A stretch of DNA of 64,000 nt from a virus: IMG/VR virus record IMGVR_UViG_3300037091_000060, positions 36,421-100,420 of that record; one strand, 5' to 3'. The notes under the pieces are model-generated. The model was not told where the DNA came from and made no database searches. It saw only the letters and a list, made by a program, of their open reading frames with translations. Shown here piece by piece: positions 4,212 through 63,827 of the stretch (position 1 is the stretch's first letter; the number at the start of each line of letters is the position of its first letter). The position numbers were made by a program, and so were the translations under genes.

Positions 4212-4862
4212 GTGGTGGACCGACCGGAGACGACAGTGAATTTTTATTTAATTTCGGATACGCATCTAAAACACGAGGCCATGAAGACATACTGTCTACG
4301 CCCGCCCAACTTCACAGAACTCATACATAAGAACGTGATGAACACAGTGAAGGCAGAAGATACGCTGATACATTTAGGCGACGTGGGCATAGGTAAACAC
4401 GCGGATTGGACGTGGATGGTGCGCGCATGGCCGGGTCGTAAAATACTGATACGTGGTAATCACGATAGGGCACACTCTTGTGGATGGTGGGCAGAAACAG
4501 GCGGCTTTGATTTCGCGTGCGACTCGATGGTCTTCCGCAACGTGCTACTCACCCACGAGCCAGCGAACGCGATCATAAAATCTGACGGCCATCGTCCGTA
4601 CGGCGCGCTGGAAGAGGGTCTGCCGCAAGACTGCGAACTGAACGTGCACGGGCACCTTCACAACATCTGGGACGGATTCGCCAGCGAAGGACGTTTGGAG
4701 CGCGACAAGGAACTGCTCGGAATAGACTTCACCAAACGACTAAAGCACTCGTGGCAGCGGCTGTTCGCCGTGGAGTACACGAACTACATGCCCGTCGAGT
4801 TCAACAAATTCATATCACAGCCTGACAAGTATCAGGCGAGGGGGCCACGTGGCCGACTTTAA
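4212..4862 (+). CDS. calcineurin-like metallophosphoesterase
   Basis: SDTH, HLGDV, GNHD, THEP and HGHLH motifs; true start may be the GTG at 4236. Confidence 0.9.
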   Translation: MVDRPETTVNFYLISDTHLKHEAMKTYCLRPPNFTELIHKNVMNTVKAEDTLIHLGDVGIGKHADWTWMVRAWPGRKILIRGNHDRAHSCGWWAETGGFDFACDSMVFRNVLLTHEPANAIIKSDGHRPYGALEEGLPQDCELNVHGHLHNIWDGFASEGRLERDKELLGIDFTKRLKHSWQRLFAVEYTNYMPVEFNKFISQPDKYQARGPRGRL

Positions 4863-49836: not shown

Positions 49837-50916
49837 TTAAGACCCGTGAGCTACGAGAACATAGTCAAGCCAATAGGAGATATTTCCGCCGAGGTTGATG
49901 ACCTGAATGATGTCTTCCTGCGCCGGGTTGTTGGTCCAAGTGTCGAGTGACAACGCAGCTAGGGTTGCTGATGAATTTAGTCTGGTGAAGTACTGGCCTA
50001 GACGGGTTCCATCGGTTGGGCTTACTGCCGGGTAGTGAACCACGCCAGCGTAATCAACATTCAAAACGACATTCAAACCTTTACCGCCTTCGCCTTGATT
50101 TACAATCTGGATTATGTCTAACTTAGGAGCACCTGCACCTTGAGAGGTGGGTTGCGGCCACGCGGTGAGAACCGACGAACCCAGATTGCGAGAGATGAGA
50201 CAATTTTGTGATGGTCCGGGGCCGGGAGGGGGCGGGGGCGGTGCAAAGGATGGAGCCGTGATAAGTTCTGCCGCCGCGATAGTGATCGCGCCGTTACCGC
50301 CGCCGACTGCGAGCGCGCGCCCGTTGAGGGTGCCGCCGCCGAGGGTGATGGATGTGAAAGCGAGAATGTTTCCTTGGGTCAGCGCGCCGGGGCCGATGCT
50401 CGTCCACGAGCTACCGACAACCCAGATGACGTTGTTGGCTTGTGCGCCGTTGACGAGGTTGATCGTCCCGGCGATAGCCTGTGTGATGGTTGAAGCAGTG
50501 GAGTAGAACACGAAGAGGGCGTTCGGGTCGCCTTGCGCGTCGAGCGTGACGGCGGTGCTGATGGCGATGGAACTGGCGCTGACGTACACGCCTGTGTAGT
50601 AGGTGCCGTTTGGAGCGCCGGGGCTGTGCTGAATGCCGCTGACGCCGATGTCAGCAGTTGTGAGCGCCATCGTCTGGGGCAGACCTGAGTAATACAAAAA
50701 GGCGTTATTGCCGTCGATGCGCGCCTGCTGAGCGTTGGCGTTATCTATAGCCGCTGGGGGAACAAAGTTCGCGCCCGTGAATCCTGTCTGGGTTGCCGTG
50801 GGGAAAGACCCCACGTTGCCACCCGAGATCAGGGTCGCGCCAGTGTTCGTTTCGCCCGCATAAGCAAGCAAGGCGTAATTCGCGGAAGTCAAAAGTTCTG
50901 TTTGTACGTTTGGCAC
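49837..50916 (-). CDS. DUF3494 ice-binding-like protein
   Basis: YALLAYAG..TLDAQGDPNALFVF..NGAQANNVIWVVGSS..GNILA..LNGRAL. Confidence 0.85.
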   Translation of the reverse strand: MPNVQTELLTSANYALLAYAGETNTGATLISGGNVGSFPTATQTGFTGANFVPPAAIDNANAQQARIDGNNAFLYYSGLPQTMALTTADIGVSGIQHSPGAPNGTYYTGVYVSASSIAISTAVTLDAQGDPNALFVFYSTASTITQAIAGTINLVNGAQANNVIWVVGSSWTSIGPGALTQGNILAFTSITLGGGTLNGRALAVGGGNGAITIAAAELITAPSFAPPPPPPGPGPSQNCLISRNLGSSVLTAWPQPTSQGAGAPKLDIIQIVNQGEGGKGLNVVLNVDYAGVVHYPAVSPTDGTRLGQYFTRLNSSATLAALSLDTWTNNPAQEDIIQVINLGGNISYWLDYVLVAHGS

Positions 50917-57537: not shown

Positions 57538-57611
57538 TGGTTCCGGCGCGTGGACTCGAACCACGATAAACAGATTCAGAATCTGCTGGCCTACCGTTGG
57601 CCGACATCGGA
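57538..57611 (-). tRNA. tRNA-Gln(CTG)
   Basis: Cloverleaf; loop TTCTGAA; encoded CCA. Confidence 0.9.
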
Positions 57612-57620
57612 ACTGAAAAT

Positions 57621-57695
57621 TGGTTGGGCAAGAACGATTCGAACGTTCATCGAGCGGATTCAAAGTCCGACGTGTTACCGTTACACTATCGCCCA
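57621..57695 (-). tRNA. tRNA-Gln(TTG)
   Basis: Loop CTTTGAA; CCA. Confidence 0.88.
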
Positions 57696-57703
57696 ACAGA
57701 AAA

Positions 57704-57777
57704 TGGTCCTAGCTAATCGAGTTGAGCGATTTCTACTTGTGTTTCAAACAAGGGTGCAACCCCTACACCAAACTAGG
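57704..57777 (-). tRNA. tRNA-Phe(GAA), atypical T-loop
   Basis: Loop TTGAAAC; T-loop CTCAACT; CCA. Confidence 0.65.
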
Positions 57778-57784
57778 ATTAAGA

Positions 57785-57869
57785 TGGAGGAAGAATGATG
57801 AGTCGAACACCACACCTTTCGGTGCCCTCCGGGTTCAAACCGGATTGCGAGCCACTCGCAGAATCTTCC
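57785..57869 (-). tRNA. tRNA-Ser(TGA)
   Basis: Loop TTTGAAC; long variable arm; CCA. Confidence 0.8.
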
Positions 57870-57941
57870 ATAAATTGTGGTCGTGAGCACCCTACTCTTT
57901 ATGGGGCTGCTCTTCGTTCTGCCGACCAGCAGATTTAAAAT

Positions 57942-58033
57942 TGGCGGACGATGTAGGATTTGAACCCACGATACCCATTTAAGAGTATGGCGCGTTAGCA
58001 CCGCGCTGCGATCAGCCTCTCTGCCAATCGTCC
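57942..58033 (-). tRNA. tRNA-Ser(GCT)
   Basis: Loop GTGCTAA; long variable arm; G73; CCA. Confidence 0.88.
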
Positions 58034-58039
58034 GTAAAA

Positions 58040-58114
58040 TGGCATGAGAGGATGGACTCGAACCACCGTAGTCGGGTTTGGAGTCCGACGTCCTAGCCGC
58101 TGAACGACTCTCAT
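58040..58114 (-). tRNA. tRNA-Trp(CCA)
   Basis: Loop CTCCAAA; G73; CCA. Confidence 0.9.
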
Positions 58115-58212
58115 GTAGAAAATGAATTCTGGGGAGCGCGCCTAACGTCTCCAATCTTCCGTTCGCTTGGAACGGGTGCTCGTATCGACGACTTCGAACT
58201 GCCAGAAAAAAT

Positions 58213-58300
58213 TGGTGGATAGTGAACGACTCGAACGTTCGAAGCCCACAAGGGGCATCTGGTTTACAGCCAGAGGCAATTGCCGCTATGCGAACCATCC
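58213..58300 (-). tRNA. tRNA-Tyr(GTA)
   Basis: Loop CTGTAAA; long variable arm; CCA. Confidence 0.9.
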
Positions 58301-58384
58301 ACAGAAAATTGGAGCCGGAAGTTATGGTTACGACCCAAGGCTTCATCCCCTCATGAAGGAACTTATCCCCTCCGACATAGAAAT

Positions 58385-58458
58385 TGGAGCGGCGTATGAG
58401 AGTCGAACTCATACCTGAACCTTGGCAAGGTTCCACGCTACCGCTACGCCAACACCGC
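58385..58458 (-). tRNA. tRNA-Gly(GCC)
   Basis: Loop TTGCCAA; U73; CCA. Confidence 0.92.
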
Positions 58459-58466
58459 TCAGAAAA

Positions 58467-58540
58467 TGGAGCACCGAAAAGGAATCGAACCTTTACGTCC
58501 GCTTTACGAAAGCGGCATCATGCCACTAGATCATCAGTGC
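58467..58540 (-). tRNA. tRNA-Thr(CGT)
   Basis: Loop TTCGTAA; CCA. Confidence 0.9.
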
Positions 58541-58546
58541 AAAAAT

Positions 58547-58621
58547 TGGAGCATCGACGTGGAATCGAACCACGGCGTTCGCATTACAGGTGCGACATCA
58601 TGACCACTAGATCATCAATGC
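58547..58621 (-). tRNA. tRNA-Thr(TGT)
   Basis: Loop CCTGTAA (C33); CCA. Confidence 0.85.
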
Positions 58622-58628
58622 TCAAAAC

Positions 58629-58702
58629 TGGAGCCAAGACGTGGAATCGAACCACGACCTAATCCTTACCAAGGATTCGTTCTGCCACTAGACTATCTAG
58701 GC
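58629..58702 (-). tRNA. tRNA-Thr(GGT)
   Basis: Loop TTGGTAA; CCA. Confidence 0.9.
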
Positions 58703-58710
58703 TCAAAAAT

Positions 58711-58787
58711 TGGAGCGGCGTATCGGATTCGAACCGATTCTCGGAGTTTGGAAAACTCATGTGCTAGCCGTTGAACACTAACACCGC
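58711..58787 (-). tRNA. tRNA-Gly(TCC)
   Basis: Loop TTTCCAA; U73; CCA. Confidence 0.9.
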
Positions 58788-58789
58788 GT

Positions 58790-58877
58790 TGGTTGCGCAG
58801 GTGGGAGTCGAACCCACGAGTCCCTTTCGGGATGAGGCTTATGAGACCTCTGACATCGGCCACTAGTCGACCGCGCA
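58790..58877 (-). tRNA. tRNA with CAT anticodon and long variable arm (identity uncertain)
   Basis: Loop CTCATAA; variable arm TCCC-GAAA-GGGA; CCA. Confidence 0.8.
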
Positions 58878-58885
58878 ATTGAAAT

Positions 58886-58959
58886 TGGTATCTAACCGTG
58901 GATTCGAACCACGATAACGCCCCTATCAAGGGCGAGTCCTACCGTTGGACGAGTCAGAT
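58886..58959 (-). tRNA. tRNA-Ile(GAT)
   Basis: Loop TTGATAG; CCA. Confidence 0.88.
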
Positions 58960-58961
58960 AT

Positions 58962-59036
58962 TGGTGGACGGTGGCGGATTCGGACCCCCACTTCATCGGT
59001 GCAAGCGACGCGTGCTCCCATTAACACTAACTGCCC
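58962..59036 (-). tRNA. tRNA-Ala(TGC)
   Basis: Loop CTTGCAC; G3:U70; CCA. Confidence 0.88.
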
Positions 59037-59046
59037 ACTGTAAAAT

Positions 59047-59120
59047 TGGTACCGCTACAGGGACTCAAACCCTGTCTACGAGGTTGAAAGCCTCGTTGCC
59101 TATCCATAGCAGATAGCGGC
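59047..59120 (-). tRNA. tRNA-Glu(TTC)
   Basis: Loop CTTTCAA; CCA. Confidence 0.85.
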
Positions 59121-59130
59121 ATTGAAAATT

Positions 59131-59204
59131 TGGCACGGCTGCGGAGAATCGAACTCCGGCCACGCGCCTGAGAAGCGCATGTTCTGCCACTAAACTACAA
59201 CCGC
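59131..59204 (-). tRNA. tRNA-Glu(CTC)
   Basis: Loop TTCTCAG; CCA. Confidence 0.85.
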
Positions 59205-59259
59205 ACTGAAAATTGGCGGGTCCCACCGAACCGAAGTCCGTATTTTCCCCATTGAAAAT

Positions 59260-59335
59260 TGGTAGGCAATAAGAGAATCGAACTCTTCCGCTCTGGGTGT
59301 AGGCCAGATGTATACGACCAGTTTACTAATCGCCT
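59260..59335 (-). tRNA. tRNA-Val(TAC)
   Basis: Loop CCTACAC (C33); CCA. Confidence 0.85.
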
Positions 59336-59744
59336 ATCTATCCAATCGAGACTCCCTACAATAGTGCGCTAATCCTGTCCAGCGACCCCTATCTACTGTA
59401 AAGTTTTCAATTGGTTCAAACTTTTTACATCCAACGCACCACGACATACCGTCTGGTGCAATCTTACGCTTGGCGACGCCGCCATGAAACGTGTGCGGCT
59501 TATTACATCTCATGTGAGAGAACGCCACATTATCTAAATCCCAAAACAAGTCAGCGGAGAGACCTTCCCACGGCTTGACGTGCTCAATGCTTAATTCGTC
59601 GATGTTCTCTATTTTCTCGCTGCATCGAACACAGACATTGTCGTCGTACTTCGCAAGTTGACGAAACAAGACCATCTTACGAAGCCTGCTGCACGCTGCG
59701 CCGTGAGACATACCTAAAGTTTCTACTGCCCGTTTGTTTGACAT
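59334..59744 (-). CDS. HNH endonuclease inserted in the tRNA array
   Basis: CVRC..SIEHVKPW..NVAFSHMRCN; C-terminal WCVGC. Confidence 0.85.
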   Translation of the reverse strand: MSNKRAVETLGMSHGAACSRLRKMVLFRQLAKYDDNVCVRCSEKIENIDELSIEHVKPWEGLSADLFWDLDNVAFSHMRCNKPHTFHGGVAKRKIAPDGMSWCVGCKKFEPIENFTVDRGRWTGLAHYCRESRLDR

Positions 59745-59785
59745 AATCGTTGGTCTCCTTGACCGTTGATTGATGTGCAGAAAAT

Positions 59786-59861
59786 TGGTGGACCCAGAAG
59801 GAATCGAACCTTCATCCCTCGCTTTAAGAGAGCGGTACTCTAGCCATTGAGCTACGAGTCC
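59786..59861 (-). tRNA. tRNA-Lys(CTT)
   Basis: Loop CTCTTAA; CCA. Confidence 0.92.
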
Positions 59862-59869
59862 ATAAAACT

Positions 59870-59944
59870 TGGTGCGCCGCCCGAGGCTCGAACTCGGACA
59901 TTGGGCTTAAAAGGCCCCATTGCTGCCGCTCGCATCCGCAGCGC
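59870..59944 (-). tRNA. tRNA-Lys(TTT), atypical D arm
   Basis: Loop CTTTTAA; CCA. Confidence 0.78.
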
Positions 59945-59992
59945 ATATTTAATAAAAGTGCCATATTTACACATGCTGTAAATATTGAATCT

Positions 59993-60300
59993 TGGTCGCG
60001 CGATAGCCCGGTTTCTGTCTAGGACGAACATTCCTCTAAGCCTGCTACCCGACTCTCATCGCGCTCAACAAGCGCTCAAGTCCTATTTGCAGTTGCACCC
60101 GTGTGGAGTACCTTCGCTCGAATGGCGAGTAGTTTGCTTATCAGGCAAACAACTCAGCACGAAGCCTTACCCGTACGCTTGCGCGTCCCGCAACTTCCAC
60201 GGCACGATGTTGAGATGTGACCGGAACTTCCTCGATATGTGATCGCATATATTTCTTGCGAATTATATACTCTCGCATATCGCGTTCGTCTACGCTACCA
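59993..60300 (-). ncRNA. rnpB: RNase P RNA (bacterial type A-like)
   Basis: GAGGAAGUUCCGG / ACAGAAACCGGGCUA (P4); P2 GACGAAC/GUUCGUC; P6 CUCAACA/UGUUGAG; GCAA-CUGC-AAAUAG...GGGUA-GCAG (P15 with L15 GGU). Confidence 0.88.
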
Positions 60301-60374
60301 AAATTTTGCCCGATACTATGTTGGGTCGGAACCGCCCACTCGCTGTGTTATAGTCTTGCGGCATGACTCAAACT

Positions 60375-60448
60375 TGGAGCATGAAGAGTGAATCGAACAC
60401 TCGATGCCTCTTTTGCAGAGAGGTAGCTTACCACTTGCCGATTCATGC
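60375..60448 (-). tRNA. tRNA-Cys(GCA)
   Basis: Loop CTGCAAA; U73; CCA. Confidence 0.9.
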
Positions 60449-60534
60449 AAACTCAGTAGACACCCTACCGCTGTCATCGCAACCCTGTCTTTATGCCTTT
60501 ATGGACAGGGCGGCTATTTCGATAGGTACAAGAT

Positions 60535-60627
60535 TGGTGCGCCACACAGGATTCGGAATTCGGACCTGTACGCCTGTTAGGGCAGAGGGTTTTAAATCCT
60601 CCGTGTCTGCCATTTCACCAGCAGCGC
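60535..60627 (-). tRNA. tRNA-Leu(TAA) with duplicated T-loop
   Basis: Loop TTTAAAA; T-loop TCCGAAT twice; CCA. Confidence 0.75.
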
Positions 60628-60633
60628 GAAACT

Positions 60634-60876
60634 TTAATCGTCTACGATGTGTTCTTCACACGAGGTGTGATTCTTTGCTCGTGGTTTGTTGCAATCTACG
60701 CGAAAACAGGTGGTCGGTTCTACATACTCTTTAACCACAATTTCTTGGTTTTCGTAAACATAGCCTGCCGCTACCGGAACAGTCTCGCCGGAATAAATCT
60801 TTTTAGGGAAGTCTGAGCCAACCCTGACTTCGATGATACCCGGACCCAGATTCACAACTAGCACGCGTGTAGTCAT
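60634..60876 (-). CDS. hypothetical protein in the tRNA array
   Basis: AAGGA SD; C-terminal CxxxxC..CxxH. Confidence 0.6.
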   Translation of the reverse strand: MTTRVLVVNLGPGIIEVRVGSDFPKKIYSGETVPVAAGYVYENQEIVVKEYVEPTTCFRVDCNKPRAKNHTSCEEHIVDD

Positions 60877-60892
60877 TGTCTTCCTTTCGAAT

Positions 60893-60981
60893 TGGTTGTC
60901 GACGATGGTGTCGAACCATCCTGCAAGCCTGATCTAGGCCAAGGGTTTATAAGACCCTGCCGCGAGCCGTCGCAGTCGACA
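60893..60981 (-). tRNA. tRNA with TAT anticodon, long variable arm and minimal D arm (nominal Ile)
   Basis: Loop CTTATAA; variable arm GCCT-AGATC-AGGC; D arm GCGA-CGGC-TCGC; CCA. Confidence 0.72.
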
Positions 60982-60990
60982 ATTGAAACT

Positions 60991-61077
60991 TGGTCGCCAA
61001 CCAGAGACTCGAACTCTGACGCCCTTTCGGGCACCGGGTTTTGAATCCGGCGTGTCTGCCAATTCCACCAGCAGGCG
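60991..61077 (-). tRNA. tRNA-Leu(CAA)
   Basis: Loop TTCAAAA; long variable arm; CCA. Confidence 0.9.
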
Positions 61078-61084
61078 ATAAACT

Positions 61085-61159
61085 TGGAGGACCGCTTCGG
61101 ACTTGCACCGAAATTTCGTGGTTCGTAGCCACGCGACGTGTCTATTGGTCTAACAGTCC
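61085..61159 (-). tRNA. tRNA-Arg(ACG)
   Basis: Loop CTACGAA; T-loop TGCAAGT; CCA. Confidence 0.82.
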
Positions 61160-61164
61160 AAAAC

Positions 61165-61239
61165 TGGAGCACCCACTCGGATTCCAACCGAGGTCATCAC
61201 GGTAGAAACGTGAGGTCCTGTGCGCTGAACGACAGGTGC
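61165..61239 (-). tRNA. tRNA-Arg(TCT)
   Basis: Loop TTTCTAC; T-loop TTGGAAT; CCA. Confidence 0.82.
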
Positions 61240-61246
61240 ATAAAAT

Positions 61247-61331
61247 TGGTAGCCCGCAGAGGACTCGAACCTCTACGCCCGAAGGCGTCCGTTTCTAAGA
61301 CGGACATGTCTGCCAGTTCCATCAGCAGGCC
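61247..61331 (-). tRNA. tRNA-Leu(TAG)
   Basis: Loop CTTAGAA; long variable arm; CCA. Confidence 0.9.
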
Positions 61332-61412
61332 ACAGAAAAATTGGGCGGCATTTATCAGCGCGCGCCGTCCATCGCGCTTCGGGTTCCAATCAAGGAACCG
61401 AAGCCATTGCGC

Positions 61413-61925
61413 CTAACCAGCTAGCGACGCCACGTCACGGGAGCTACCCGGAAATGTTATAGGCTTCTGTTGTACAACCTCTTTCATCCATGTCAGGTAA
61501 TTCATTACCGCTTCGTCTGACATTTTAGAAAACAAACCTTCGATACTGTTACAATCCCTATGAATGAACCCTCTCGGTTCACCTGTCTCGTGGTTGTGGT
61601 CAAAACAACTACCATTCGAACCTTGGAGACTCAACACGCCACCACAAGCGACACAAAACCCTTTCTGTGATTCCCAGATTTTTAACATCTCATCTGGCGT
61701 TATTGTCGGAGACGAGTACCCTTTAGACTTTGCCAACGACCTGAGTCTTGGGAGTAAAACTCTAAATCTTCCCACAAGACCACTTGGGCCTTCGCCCATC
61801 CTACGTGCTCTCACGCGCCGACACTCGGACGTTACCGAACATTTCTGACAAATAAAATACGTTCTTCCGTGTCCGTTTTTCTTCGGCTTATTCCTTTCAT
61901 TGCCACAAATAGAGCATAACTTCAT
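61413..61925 (-). CDS. endonuclease VII-like HNH protein in the tRNA array
   Basis: QKGFCVAC..FDHNHETGEPRGFIHRDCN. Confidence 0.85.
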   Translation of the reverse strand: MKLCSICGNERNKPKKNGHGRTYFICQKCSVTSECRRVRARRMGEGPSGLVGRFRVLLPRLRSLAKSKGYSSPTITPDEMLKIWESQKGFCVACGGVLSLQGSNGSCFDHNHETGEPRGFIHRDCNSIEGLFSKMSDEAVMNYLTWMKEVVQQKPITFPGSSRDVASLAG

Positions 61926-61973
61926 TTCACCCTCCGCAATAGAGTGTCGGGGGTGATTGCGGCACCCCCAACC
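61926..61973 (-). promoter_or_regulatory. kissing-loop leader, copy D
   Basis: GGGGGUG-CCGCAAU-CACCCCC and CACUCU-AUUGCGG-AGGGUG. Confidence 0.8.
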
Positions 61974-61988
61974 GATGTACGTACAAGA

Positions 61989-62063
61989 TGGCTGACCCAG
62001 TAGGATTCGAACCTACACCCTCTTCATTAACAGTGAAGTGCCCTGCCGTTAGACCACAGGTCA
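61989..62063 (-). tRNA. tRNA-Asn(GTT)
   Basis: Loop CTGTTAA; G73; CCA. Confidence 0.92.
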
Positions 62064-62072
62064 GTAGAAACT

Positions 62073-62146
62073 TGGTCGAGAATGGGTGAATCGAACACCC
62101 GCCTCATGTATCCGAAACATGGAGACTACCACTATCAGAACTCTCG
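62073..62146 (-). tRNA. tRNA-Pro(CGG)
   Basis: Loop TTCGGAT; C1:G72, A73; CCA. Confidence 0.85.
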
Positions 62147-62154
62147 ATAAAAAT

Positions 62155-62228
62155 TGGCGCGGGTACCGGGAATCGAACCCGGCCTACCACAGTGACAGTG
62201 TGGCGTCATGCCGACAGACCCTACCTGC
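62155..62228 (-). tRNA. tRNA-Asp(GTC)
   Basis: Loop CTGTCAC; G73; CCA. Confidence 0.88.
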
Positions 62229-62238
62229 GTCGTAAACT

Positions 62239-62312
62239 TGGTCGAAAGTGCTGGAGTCGAACCAACGCCACATGCTTCCAAAGCACGCATGCTACCGTAA
62301 CACTTACTCTCG
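62239..62312 (-). tRNA. tRNA-Pro(TGG)
   Basis: Loop TTTGGAA; C1:G72; CCA. Confidence 0.88.
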
Positions 62313-62319
62313 ACAAAAA

Positions 62320-62395
62320 TGTTGAGTACGGTGGGACTCGAACCCACATCGGCGCGCGTTATGAGCGCGCTGCTTTACCATTAAGCTACGTCCTC
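62320..62395 (-). tRNA. tRNA-Met or Ile2 (CAT); 3' end ACA rather than CCA
   Basis: Loop CTCATAA; standard cloverleaf. Confidence 0.85.
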
Positions 62396-62484
62396 GACAA
62401 TGACATGTGCAACTGTGCGGGAGCTACCCGCGTCTGCACTGTGCCCGCGTAAGCAGGCGAGCCATCGCTTTAAAGAATAAACTT

Positions 62485-62667
62485 TTACTTCGCTGCTGGT
62501 GCCGCCTTTTTCGCTGCCTTCAAAATGAACAGGTTACGAATCGTGATAGCTGCTGAACCAGCCGCCATCATTTCGAACGGTACCGCGCCGAGGTAGTTAT
62601 AAAATCCGTGCTGCGCGAGAATCGAACCTATGACTCCGGTTCCGATCAACTTCACGCCCGCGTCCAA
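62485..62667 (-). CDS. possible small membrane protein
   Basis: Two hydrophobic stretches and a KAAKKAAPAAK tail, but no good start or SD. Confidence 0.35.
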   Translation of the reverse strand: MDAGVKLIGTGVIGSILAQHGFYNYLGAVPFEMMAAGSAAITIRNLFILKAAKKAAPAAK

Positions 62668-62716
62668 GAACGTGCCGAACGCTCTCGCGCCGGGGCGGTC
62701 TTCGTAAATTAAAATT

Positions 62717-62791
62717 TGGGGTGGGCACCCAGTATCGATCTGGGGCCGAGAGGTTCACAACCTCCCGTGCTACCATTACACCATGCTCACC
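62717..62791 (-). tRNA. tRNA-His(GTG)
   Basis: Loop TTGTGAA; encoded G-1:C73; CCA. Confidence 0.88.
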
Positions 62792-62802: not shown

Positions 62803-62832
62803 ACTCTACCACAGGAAGCCGGATGCCGTCAA
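62803..62832 (-). promoter_or_regulatory. promoter of the tRNA/RNA island
   Basis: TTGACG-18 bp-TAGAGT with an extended TG, 11 bp upstream of tRNA-His. Confidence 0.6.
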
Positions 62833-62838
62833 GCGAAA

Positions 62839-63024
62839 TTATAGAAGCGACTTTACGCGGGTAACAACCTCGCGGTAATCGGCGATGATGCAAACTGACG
62901 CTTCCGATTCGATCTTTGCGATCTCAGCCTTGATAGCAGCTAGCTTGAAGTTGGCCGGATGATGGACGCGACCTGCGCCAAAACCTATGGCGAGCGCGAA
63001 CGCGAATAAAATCATGAGTCCCAT
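62839..63024 (-). CDS. small membrane-anchored protein
   Basis: N-terminal TM segment; GGAG SD. Confidence 0.55.
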   Translation of the reverse strand: MGLMILFAFALAIGFGAGRVHHPANFKLAAIKAEIAKIESEASVCIIADYREVVTRVKSLL

Positions 63025-63264: not shown

Positions 63265-63762
63265 TTAGTTGTTCAGATAGAGTTTATTTTTATATCTTCT
63301 TTCTCTCTTCTGTCTCTCGTGCTGTGAAGCCCAAACTGCATTAGCGTCCCGCTCAATCGTTGACTTGTGAGGGCAGACACCGTCGTTGCACTGCCGCCCC
63401 ATGTTACAGTTGTGACACAAAACGCGGTATTTGCCTTGAGGGTAACCATGCTTTCTTAATTGCAAATAAAAATTATAACCGCCATCGTTATTGCGACGCA
63501 AAGGGTCTTCCTTAGCATTACCAAAGATGTGATCTATTGCTAAGAAATAAATCTCGGTTTCGCCACAGCAAGAACAACAGCCCCCATACGCGTCTATTAC
63601 CTTCTGTCTGAGTTTTCGCTGGCAATCTTTGTGATACCGTCTCCGACAGATTTTACAATGATAATCCTTTCCTTGTTTGCCGTTAATGTTCGTACCAAAA
63701 TCATCTAGGCTCTTATCGGTGCCGCAACGGCCACAGCGTTTGGTTTCAGTAGATGCTATCAT
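63265..63762 (-). CDS. HNH endonuclease
   Basis: CSCCGE..LAIDHI..VLCHNCN; N-terminal CGRC..CKIC. Confidence 0.88.
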   Translation of the reverse strand: MIASTETKRCGRCGTDKSLDDFGTNINGKQGKDYHCKICRRRYHKDCQRKLRQKVIDAYGGCCSCCGETEIYFLAIDHIFGNAKEDPLRRNNDGGYNFYLQLRKHGYPQGKYRVLCHNCNMGRQCNDGVCPHKSTIERDANAVWASQHERQKRERRYKNKLYLNN

Positions 63763-63827
63763 CACTCCTCCACAAAGGAGTCACGGGGTGTTGTGGCACC
63801 CCGCTAATTCGGCTCATGACTTCCGAA
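63763..63827 (-). promoter_or_regulatory. kissing-loop leader, copy E
   Basis: CGGGGUG-CCACAA-CACCCCG and ACUCCU-UUGUGG-AGGAGU; extra 5' hairpin. Confidence 0.8.

Follow-up and report, generated by a model that had tools for sequence, protein, structure and literature searches.

Few ribozymes are common to all cellular life; RNase P RNA is among them and is regarded as a strictly cellular or organellar gene. The phage locus described here, in which an RNA of this kind lies among tRNA genes, raises the question of whether a virus can carry a conserved copy of its own, and what such a copy would do. If it does, phages that encode many tRNAs would also supply the enzyme for the maturation of those tRNAs, which bears on the independence of phages from the host translation machinery and on their survival of host shut-off or tRNA-targeting defences. 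The window, meaning the whole stretch of 64,000 nucleotides that was analysed, corresponds to the 64 kb at the right-hand end of a 100,420-bp IMG/VR virus record rated 99% complete by CheckV. The record contains genes for the large subunit of a terminase and for a portal protein and is therefore that of a tailed phage, which bears out the phage origin assumed in a preliminary description made from the letters of the DNA alone. That description had proposed that the phage supplies its own RNase P RNA. This proposal is supported by a full-model match to the bacterial class A family (RF00010), by a fold kept in at least 25 relatives, and by the position of the RNA on the tRNA strand within the array. 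We consider it probable that the window holds a functional phage gene encoding the RNA subunit of RNase P, and we infer that the RNA would be catalytic, would take its RnpA partner from the host and would benefit the phage.

Detection of the RNA and conservation of its fold

A cmscan search of positions 59300-60950 with permissive filters returned RF00010 (RNaseP_bact_a) at 59988-60301 on the minus strand, with 93.1 bits and an E-value of 1.3e-28, aligned from model position 1 to 367, i.e. over the full model. RF00010 is the best-scoring family of the RNase P clan for this RNA, and it has no other match in the complete 100,420-bp record (E 1.8e-30). At gathering thresholds, the scan of the window reported tRNAs only and no RF00010, because the score is 7 bits short of the curated gathering cut-off of 100 bits. 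The covariance-model comparison that the preliminary description had named as its check thus upholds the assignment over the whole model, though with a score under that cut-off. Consensus stretches matched in the alignment comprise GAGGAA..UCCGG, GCAA, CAAAUAGG, CGGGUAG, UAGA.GAAUG and ACAGAA.CCGG; all of these highly conserved stretches are invariant, or almost so, in the 25 homologues described below, and those of CR-I, CR-IV and CR-V (the first and the last two) agree with the upper-case consensus and are invariant in the family. The gene, an RNase P RNA of a reduced bacterial class A type according to the full-model match, the alignment of 25 members and the covariation described below, extends from 59992 to 60301 on the minus strand (310 nt), its ends being defined by the first and last P1 pair. 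The RNA and its strand are those given previously, but the ends lie one base pair further out on each side than in the 308-nt version (59993-60300).

Among 15 relatives scored against RF00010, six pass the cut-off (101-132 bits) and nine fail; the relative L066 has 80.8 bits. The lineage straddles the Rfam cut-off, and routine annotation misses more than half of the members checked because they fall below it. Since six of the 15 do pass, public annotation probably contains some copies that bear the label but have drawn no comment. A blastn search of the RNA against 50,697 GenBank phage records gave no match, and in the full-text literature covered, which lies mostly outside the subscription journals, no account of an RNase P RNA encoded by a phage or other virus was found.

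Homologues were collected by scanning viral and metagenome contigs for sequence patterns and then applying a family HMM (nhmmer). This yielded 25 distinct full-length homologues on phage or phage-like contigs, 243-336 nt long and with identities to the window copy down to 55-57%. Most of the metagenome and viral pattern matches were rejected by the HMM as chance, as were, among the matches listed, all of those to the combined CR-I and P8 pattern in cellular genome contigs (at least 120 loci), which fell in coding sequence. No further full members came from an IMG/VR scan with ACAGAANCCGGGCTA, the compensated 3' strand of P4. Short RNase P-like RNAs of other lineages, with canonical or near-canonical CR-I, were seen on further viral contigs (L002, L003, L004, L011 and L334); in L334, which is 263 kb long, only ~150 nt separate CR-I from CR-V.

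A structure of 75 pairs, the pseudoknots P4 and P6 among them, was projected onto a MAFFT alignment of the 25 members, and pairs were counted explicitly. Standard pairs occupy 93.0% of the cells; in controls with the 3' partners shifted by 1-3 columns, this share is 33-40%. Both sides are changed in 52 of the 75 pairs, with 330 compensated cells, and the covariation score is 0.482 versus 0.06-0.09 in the shifted controls. None of 500 shuffles reached the observed measures. P2, P4, P8 and P9 are 100% paired across the 25 members. RNAalifold, which was blind to the projected structure, recovered P1, P2, P7-P11, P15 and P16, with 34 of its 51 pairs compensated. The invariant core columns read GAGGAAGUUCCGG, GCAA, AAAUAGG, GGGU, AGA.GAAUG and ACAGAA..CGGGCUA. 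A true homologue of RNase P RNA, it is under selection for its fold in at least 25 distinct relatives, and the covariation together with the invariant catalytic core shows that it is not a decaying captured gene.

A conserved catalytic domain and a reduced specificity domain

The core elements named in the preliminary description (P1, P2, an AU-rich P3, P4, P6, P15-P17 and the L15 GGU) were each located, all on the minus strand. The 5' strand of P1, UUGGUAGCGU (60292-60301), pairs with GCGCGACCAA (59992-60001), which includes ACCA, through 10 pairs, six of them changed on both sides in relatives; position 6 is the conserved A.G/A.A mismatch. The RNA had been said to end in ACCA like its neighbours. 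The letters are indeed present (...ACCA-A), but they do not form a free tail, being paired with the 5' UUGG within P1, and a base-paired P1 end, possibly an L9 receptor, accounts for the terminal ACCA at least equally well. In P2, GACGAAC (60284-60290) pairs with GUUCGUC (60023-60029); all cells of its seven pairs are paired, and six pairs are changed on both sides. P3 (60233-60282) is an enlarged AU-rich hairpin of 51 nt with a GCAA loop and a folding energy of -20 kcal/mol, and its counterparts in relatives range from 13 to 73 nt and are hairpins in every case.

The first conserved region had been described as deviating from its usual form, and it does so: CR-I reads GAGGAAGUUCC instead of GAGGAAAGUCC. 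CR-I and the 5' strand of P4, GAGGAAGUUCCGGU with its bulged U (60220-60233), are invariant in all 25 sequences and pair with 60004-60012, within the segment ACAGAAACCGGGCUA (60004-60018) that holds CR-V and the 3' strand of P4. The resulting helix, GAGGAAGUUCCGGU paired with ACCGGGCU, retains the bulged U and comprises seven pairs, with 100% of the cells paired in the 25 sequences. Relative to the consensus, an A-U pair has become G-C and a G-C pair has become U.G; both strands have changed at each substituted pair, and therefore the helix is preserved. The last P4 pair, U-A, covaries to C-G, A-U or G-C in 12 sequences.

P15, P16 and P17 with the L15/16 loop occupy 60042-60092, with GGGUA at 60046-60050, in which G252, G253 and U255 are invariant, and the GCAA of J5/15 is retained. 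The 5' strand of P6, CUCAACA (60208-60214), forms a pseudoknot of 6-7 pairs with the L17 loop UGUUGAG (60064-60070), and five of its six counted pairs are changed on both sides. Nearly every pair covaries in these four helices, whose cells are paired in 97% (P15), 86% (P16), 91% (P17) and 89% (P6) of cases. The combination of P15-P16-P17 and its L15 GGU with the P6 pseudoknot is what distinguishes class A from class B. The absence of P18, already suspected from the letters, is evident in the alignment, where the 24-nt P18 block of the model is deleted to 0 nt: GCUU followed by UAGAGGAAUG, the J18/2 motif (60029-60041), is joined directly to P15, and the linker from L15 to J18/2 measures 7-10 nt in 25 of 25 members. 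In class A RNAs, the GNRA loop of P18 docks on P8.

The specificity domain (60099-60207), in addition, has been rebuilt, a feature absent from the preliminary description that became visible through comparison with the model and with Terriglobia rnpB genes. P5 is present, and the domain itself contains P7, P8, P9 with a GNRA loop, P10, P11 and one P12-like hairpin, carrying an invariant P8 GUGGAAGUUGC and a conserved CAUUCGAG. A 99-nt block of the model is replaced by 58 nt, in which CR-II and CR-III (J11/12 and J12/13) as well as P13 and P14 are missing. In an alignment with four Terriglobia rnpB genes, the latter show CR-II as GUGCCACAGAAAA and CR-III/P13 as GGUAAGGGUGAAAAGGUG, neither of which occurs in the phage RNAs, and a genuine CR-II or CR-III motif was found in none of the 25 family members. 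The distal specificity domain differs in size across the family, its extremes being a hairpin of 18 nt and a branched arm of 80 nt. In cellular RNase P RNAs, CR-II and CR-III form the module that reads the tRNA elbow, while P13, P14 and P18 stabilise the fold. The lineage is a natural deletion series, in which P18, P13/P14 and CR-II/III are lost, P4 is rewritten and the distal specificity domain measures 18-80 nt, and which tests the parts of the ribozyme needed for catalysis and substrate choice.

The P8 hairpin GUGGAAGUUGCGG (60188-60200, minus strand) is invariant in 25 of 25 members, and 11 of its 13 letters are identical to the CR-I 13-mer GAGGAAGUUCCGG (60221-60233, minus strand). Bacterial P8 loops are variable. 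When the P8 loop was compared by eye with the conserved CAUUCGAG and with the 3' strand of P4, no convincing complementarity was seen; the columns concerned are invariant, and covariation is hence impossible there.

The tRNA array, transcription and the search for a protein partner

The RNA lies, as had been described, inside an array of 33 tRNA genes on the same strand (57538-62790, minus), which consists of 32 tRNAs called by ARAGORN and one Leu(UAA)-like gene detected by Rfam alone. CCA is encoded in 31 of the 32 ARAGORN-called genes. Neighbouring tRNA genes are mostly 5-10 nt apart, with stereotyped trailers (A or G, then UUU), and the RNase P RNA is punctuated like them, by AAAAUU before P1 and ACCA-AGAUU after it. 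Its upstream neighbour is tRNA-Cys(GCA) (60375-60448, minus), 73 nt before P1. Downstream, a 47-nt spacer with an AU-rich hairpin of -6.9 kcal/mol (59945-59991, minus) leads to tRNA-Lys(UUU) (59870-59944, minus); 5' cleavage of this tRNA would release the RNase P RNA at its 3' end. A "tmRNA" called by ARAGORN at 59786-60083 (minus, tag AADASGSNGAF) is false, being stitched together from tRNA-Lys(CUU), tRNA-Lys(UUU) and 3' sequence of the RNase P RNA; no Rfam tmRNA is found there even at E<=10.

Several other genes of the window deserve mention. The tRNA-Leu(UAA)-like gene (60535-60627, minus) stands where relatives have tRNA-Leu(taa), and has a long variable arm and an encoded CCA; a tandem duplication of UCCGAAU (7 nt) gives it a T loop of 15 nt. 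It scores 30.6 bits in Rfam, goes uncalled by ARAGORN at every setting, and may be either a disabled tRNA or a substrate still cut by an RNase P independent of the elbow. At 62323-62395 (minus), ARAGORN calls a tRNA-Tyr(ata), for which the Rfam alignment (63.8 bits) shows the loop CUCAUAA and thus the anticodon CAU; it is the best-scoring tRNA of the window in Rfam and, alone among the tRNA genes of the array, encodes no CCA. The larger gaps of the array are occupied by interspersed genes of the HNH and endonuclease VII families (59334-59744, 61413-61925 and 63265-63765, minus), as would be the case for free-standing homing endonucleases, which they resemble. Outside the array of this peat phage, a 359-aa protein (49837-50916, minus), located among unannotated large open reading frames, contains an ice-binding-like domain (PF11999, E 1.5e-28) and may be a tail or adhesin module.

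Most of the homologues occupy a corresponding place in a tRNA array. Among relatives with the RNA in such an array, nearly all carry it on the strand of the tRNAs, flanked by tRNA-Cys (or Leu-UAA) and tRNA-Lys. In about nine of these, the tRNA-Lys gene starts 8-13 nt past the last base of P1, compared with the 47-nt gap in the window. A distant subgroup of three (L008, L028 and L088) is found beside few tRNAs and has its own near-consensus promoter, TTGACA-N17-TATTCT, confirmed with a scanner in the first two and read from the sequence in L088. This promoter ends 5 nt before P1, which places the start of transcription at the predicted 5' end of the RNA. Another member, L061, adjoins phage DNA polymerase, helicase and Erf recombinase genes, with no tRNA within 12 kb. 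From these members with few tRNAs or none it follows that the gene moves in phages with or without an array.

In the array of the window, a scan for sigma-70-type promoters found seven sites against 5.1 expected, which is not above chance, and two candidate sites at 62803-62867, just upstream of the first tRNA, are at most suggestive. A conserved leader of ~100 nt separates tRNA-Cys from the RNase P RNA in L066 (3261-3427) and in six further close relatives (L009, L010, L069, L089, L135 and L019), and consists in order of GUCGGC, CCGAAUCGUUU, a hairpin, and UAACGAAAA ~20 nt before P1. No Rfam family matches the leader of the L066 group, and the window has a different 73-nt spacer in its place. 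In L017, a 104-nt Rfam tRNA match (4340-4443, minus, 48.5 bits), which may be a tRNA with an insertion, lies directly upstream of the RNA and is missing from the ARAGORN list.

DNA of the window recurs across peat metagenomes of several studies. A 242-nt contig from a soil metatranscriptome, lying wholly within the gene, matches 59998-60126 and 60187-60231; its letters differ across the variable hairpin, and it therefore represents the RNase P RNA of a relative. Of the RNA runs compared, X17 gave one and X19 two small contigs of relatives, and X18 gave none. Such contigs give a weak hint that the RNA of a relative is expressed, as RNA libraries can hold DNA.

The preliminary description had seen no gene for the RnpA protein in the window, and this holds for the entire genome: PF00825 has no match at E<=1 in the 100,420 bp, while 10 of 14 control genomes were positive. 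Thus, no RnpA partner is encoded alongside the RNA.

Proposed function, origin and comparison with known systems

The most probable explanation is that the RNA, which combines a class-A-type catalytic domain (P1-P6, P15-P17) with a reduced specificity domain, would be transcribed together with or beside the tRNA array, would most likely bind host RnpA, and would cut the 5' leaders of the tightly packed phage pre-tRNAs. Some polycistronic tRNA transcripts of E. coli are separated by RNase P cuts. With tRNA genes 5-10 nt apart and nearly all encoding CCA, a single RNase P cut per gene would split the entire array, leaving short trailers for exonucleases, and the L15 GGU would pair with the CCA of each substrate. 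Through 5' cleavage of tRNA-Lys, which lies downstream, the ribozyme would likewise have its own 3' end released. The phage would gain extra or host-independent tRNA maturation during infection. Pre-tRNA cleavage, the borrowing of RnpA, and either tuning to phage tRNAs or a backup role would all fit the invariant core, the CCA-bearing substrates and the short spacers. Some observations count against a working ribozyme: the window copy scores below the Rfam cut-off; the elbow-reading CR-II/III, as well as P13, P14 and P18, are missing; and P4, the most conserved helix, has two double substitutions beside its metal-binding bulged U.

An intact fold could also serve a non-enzymatic purpose, the RNA acting as a decoy that soaks up host RnpA or regulates host RNase P and thereby biases tRNA maturation or shuts off the host. 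Such a decoy would be in keeping with a genome lacking rnpA, in which the protein partner must be that of the host, with a degenerate specificity domain, and with a P4 altered at normally invariant positions. We nevertheless regard it as unlikely, since the L15 GGU, the J5/15 GCAA, the P4 geometry with its bulged U and the ACAGAA stretch, none of which has a known protein-binding role, are invariant in 25 diverged members, the P6 pseudoknot covaries, and a site among CCA-encoding substrates suits catalysis better. The missing rnpA, together with the many open reading frames near the array without a family match and the range of P3 from 13 to 73 nt, could instead point to a ribozyme independent of host RnpA, working free of protein in vivo or with an unrecognised phage cofactor. 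This, too, seems improbable to us: no small conserved open reading frame stands beside the RNA in relatives, its flanks being tRNAs, leaders and homing endonucleases, and bacterial P RNAs require their protein in vivo, all the more so after losing stabilising helices.

For a working RNase P with a host protein, the loss of CR-II/III, P13/P14 and P18 and the distal specificity domain of 18-80 nt suggest, as far as sequence can indicate, a relaxed recognition of the elbow. It is possible, and we propose it tentatively, that the enzyme would identify its substrates chiefly by the acceptor stem and by the pairing of their encoded CCA with L15, and that the altered P4 (G-C and U.G) and the invariant P8 loop would be compensating innovations. 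An elbow-independent enzyme would suit dense, CCA-encoding and sometimes odd phage tRNAs, such as the one in which the T loop is duplicated. Cleavage at tRNA-Lys, downstream of it, would also set its own 3' end free.

As to the origin of the gene, four Terriglobia rnpB genes are 388-410 nt long and score 286-301 bits with RF00010. The identity of the phage RNA to them is ~50% over alignable columns, no higher than the divergence inside the phage family, which speaks for an old phage-borne lineage and against a recent capture. BLAST of 401 Acidobacteriota genomes found no copy, and no host or prophage link among those. By its terminase, the nearest cultured phage is Tunturiibacter phage Tunturi_3 (26.6% identity), which has an acidobacterial host; its genome has no RF00010 match, and it is therefore not a ready experimental system. 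Phages can carry fragments of RNA genes into which they integrate, and the low Rfam score and several missing helices might recall a decaying host rnpB captured by chance or an attP integration-target piece of a temperate phage, but this is highly improbable for a gene of full length that retains both strands of P1 and is no mere 3' fragment, and is contradicted by 330 compensated cells in 52 pairs over 25 homologues, by the ~50% identity to Terriglobia rnpB with no copy in the 401 genomes, and by the promoter of its own in relatives.

Judged by comparison of sequences, the window gene is a virus-encoded, class-A-derived RNase P RNA without P18, P13/P14 and CR-II/III and with a rewritten P4. 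Like bacterial class A RNAs (RF00010; E. coli M1 RNA/rnpB, Thermotoga maritima P RNA), it has the helix order P1-P12 and P15-P16-P17, the P4 and P6 pseudoknots, the P4 bulged U, CR-I, CR-IV, CR-V, the L15 GGU and the GNRA loop of P9. Unlike them, it measures 310 nt, as against 388-410 nt in Terriglobia, and lacks P18, P13, P14, CR-II and CR-III; its distal domain is a labile hairpin of 18-80 nt, its P4 has G-C for A-U and U.G for G-C, and its P8 is invariant. In addition, the gene is encoded by a phage, within a tRNA array and in a genome without rnpA. Reduced P RNAs are known from Mycoplasma fermentans, the engineered "Micro P", Chlorobium, which is without P18, and Pyrobaculum (type T, RF02357); they lose P18, P12-P14 or most of the specificity domain and yet keep catalysis, usually at a cost in stability and with greater reliance on protein or salt. 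In contrast to these cellular or laboratory RNAs, the RNA of the window is viral and keeps P15-P17 and P6. Theta (HDV-like) ribozymes are likewise encoded by phages beside tRNA genes and have been proposed to aid tRNA maturation (PMC10879173). They are, however, small, self-cleaving and proposed to act on the 3' side of tRNAs (PMC10879173), whereas the RNA described here is a homologue of the trans-acting RNase P, which acts on the 5' side.
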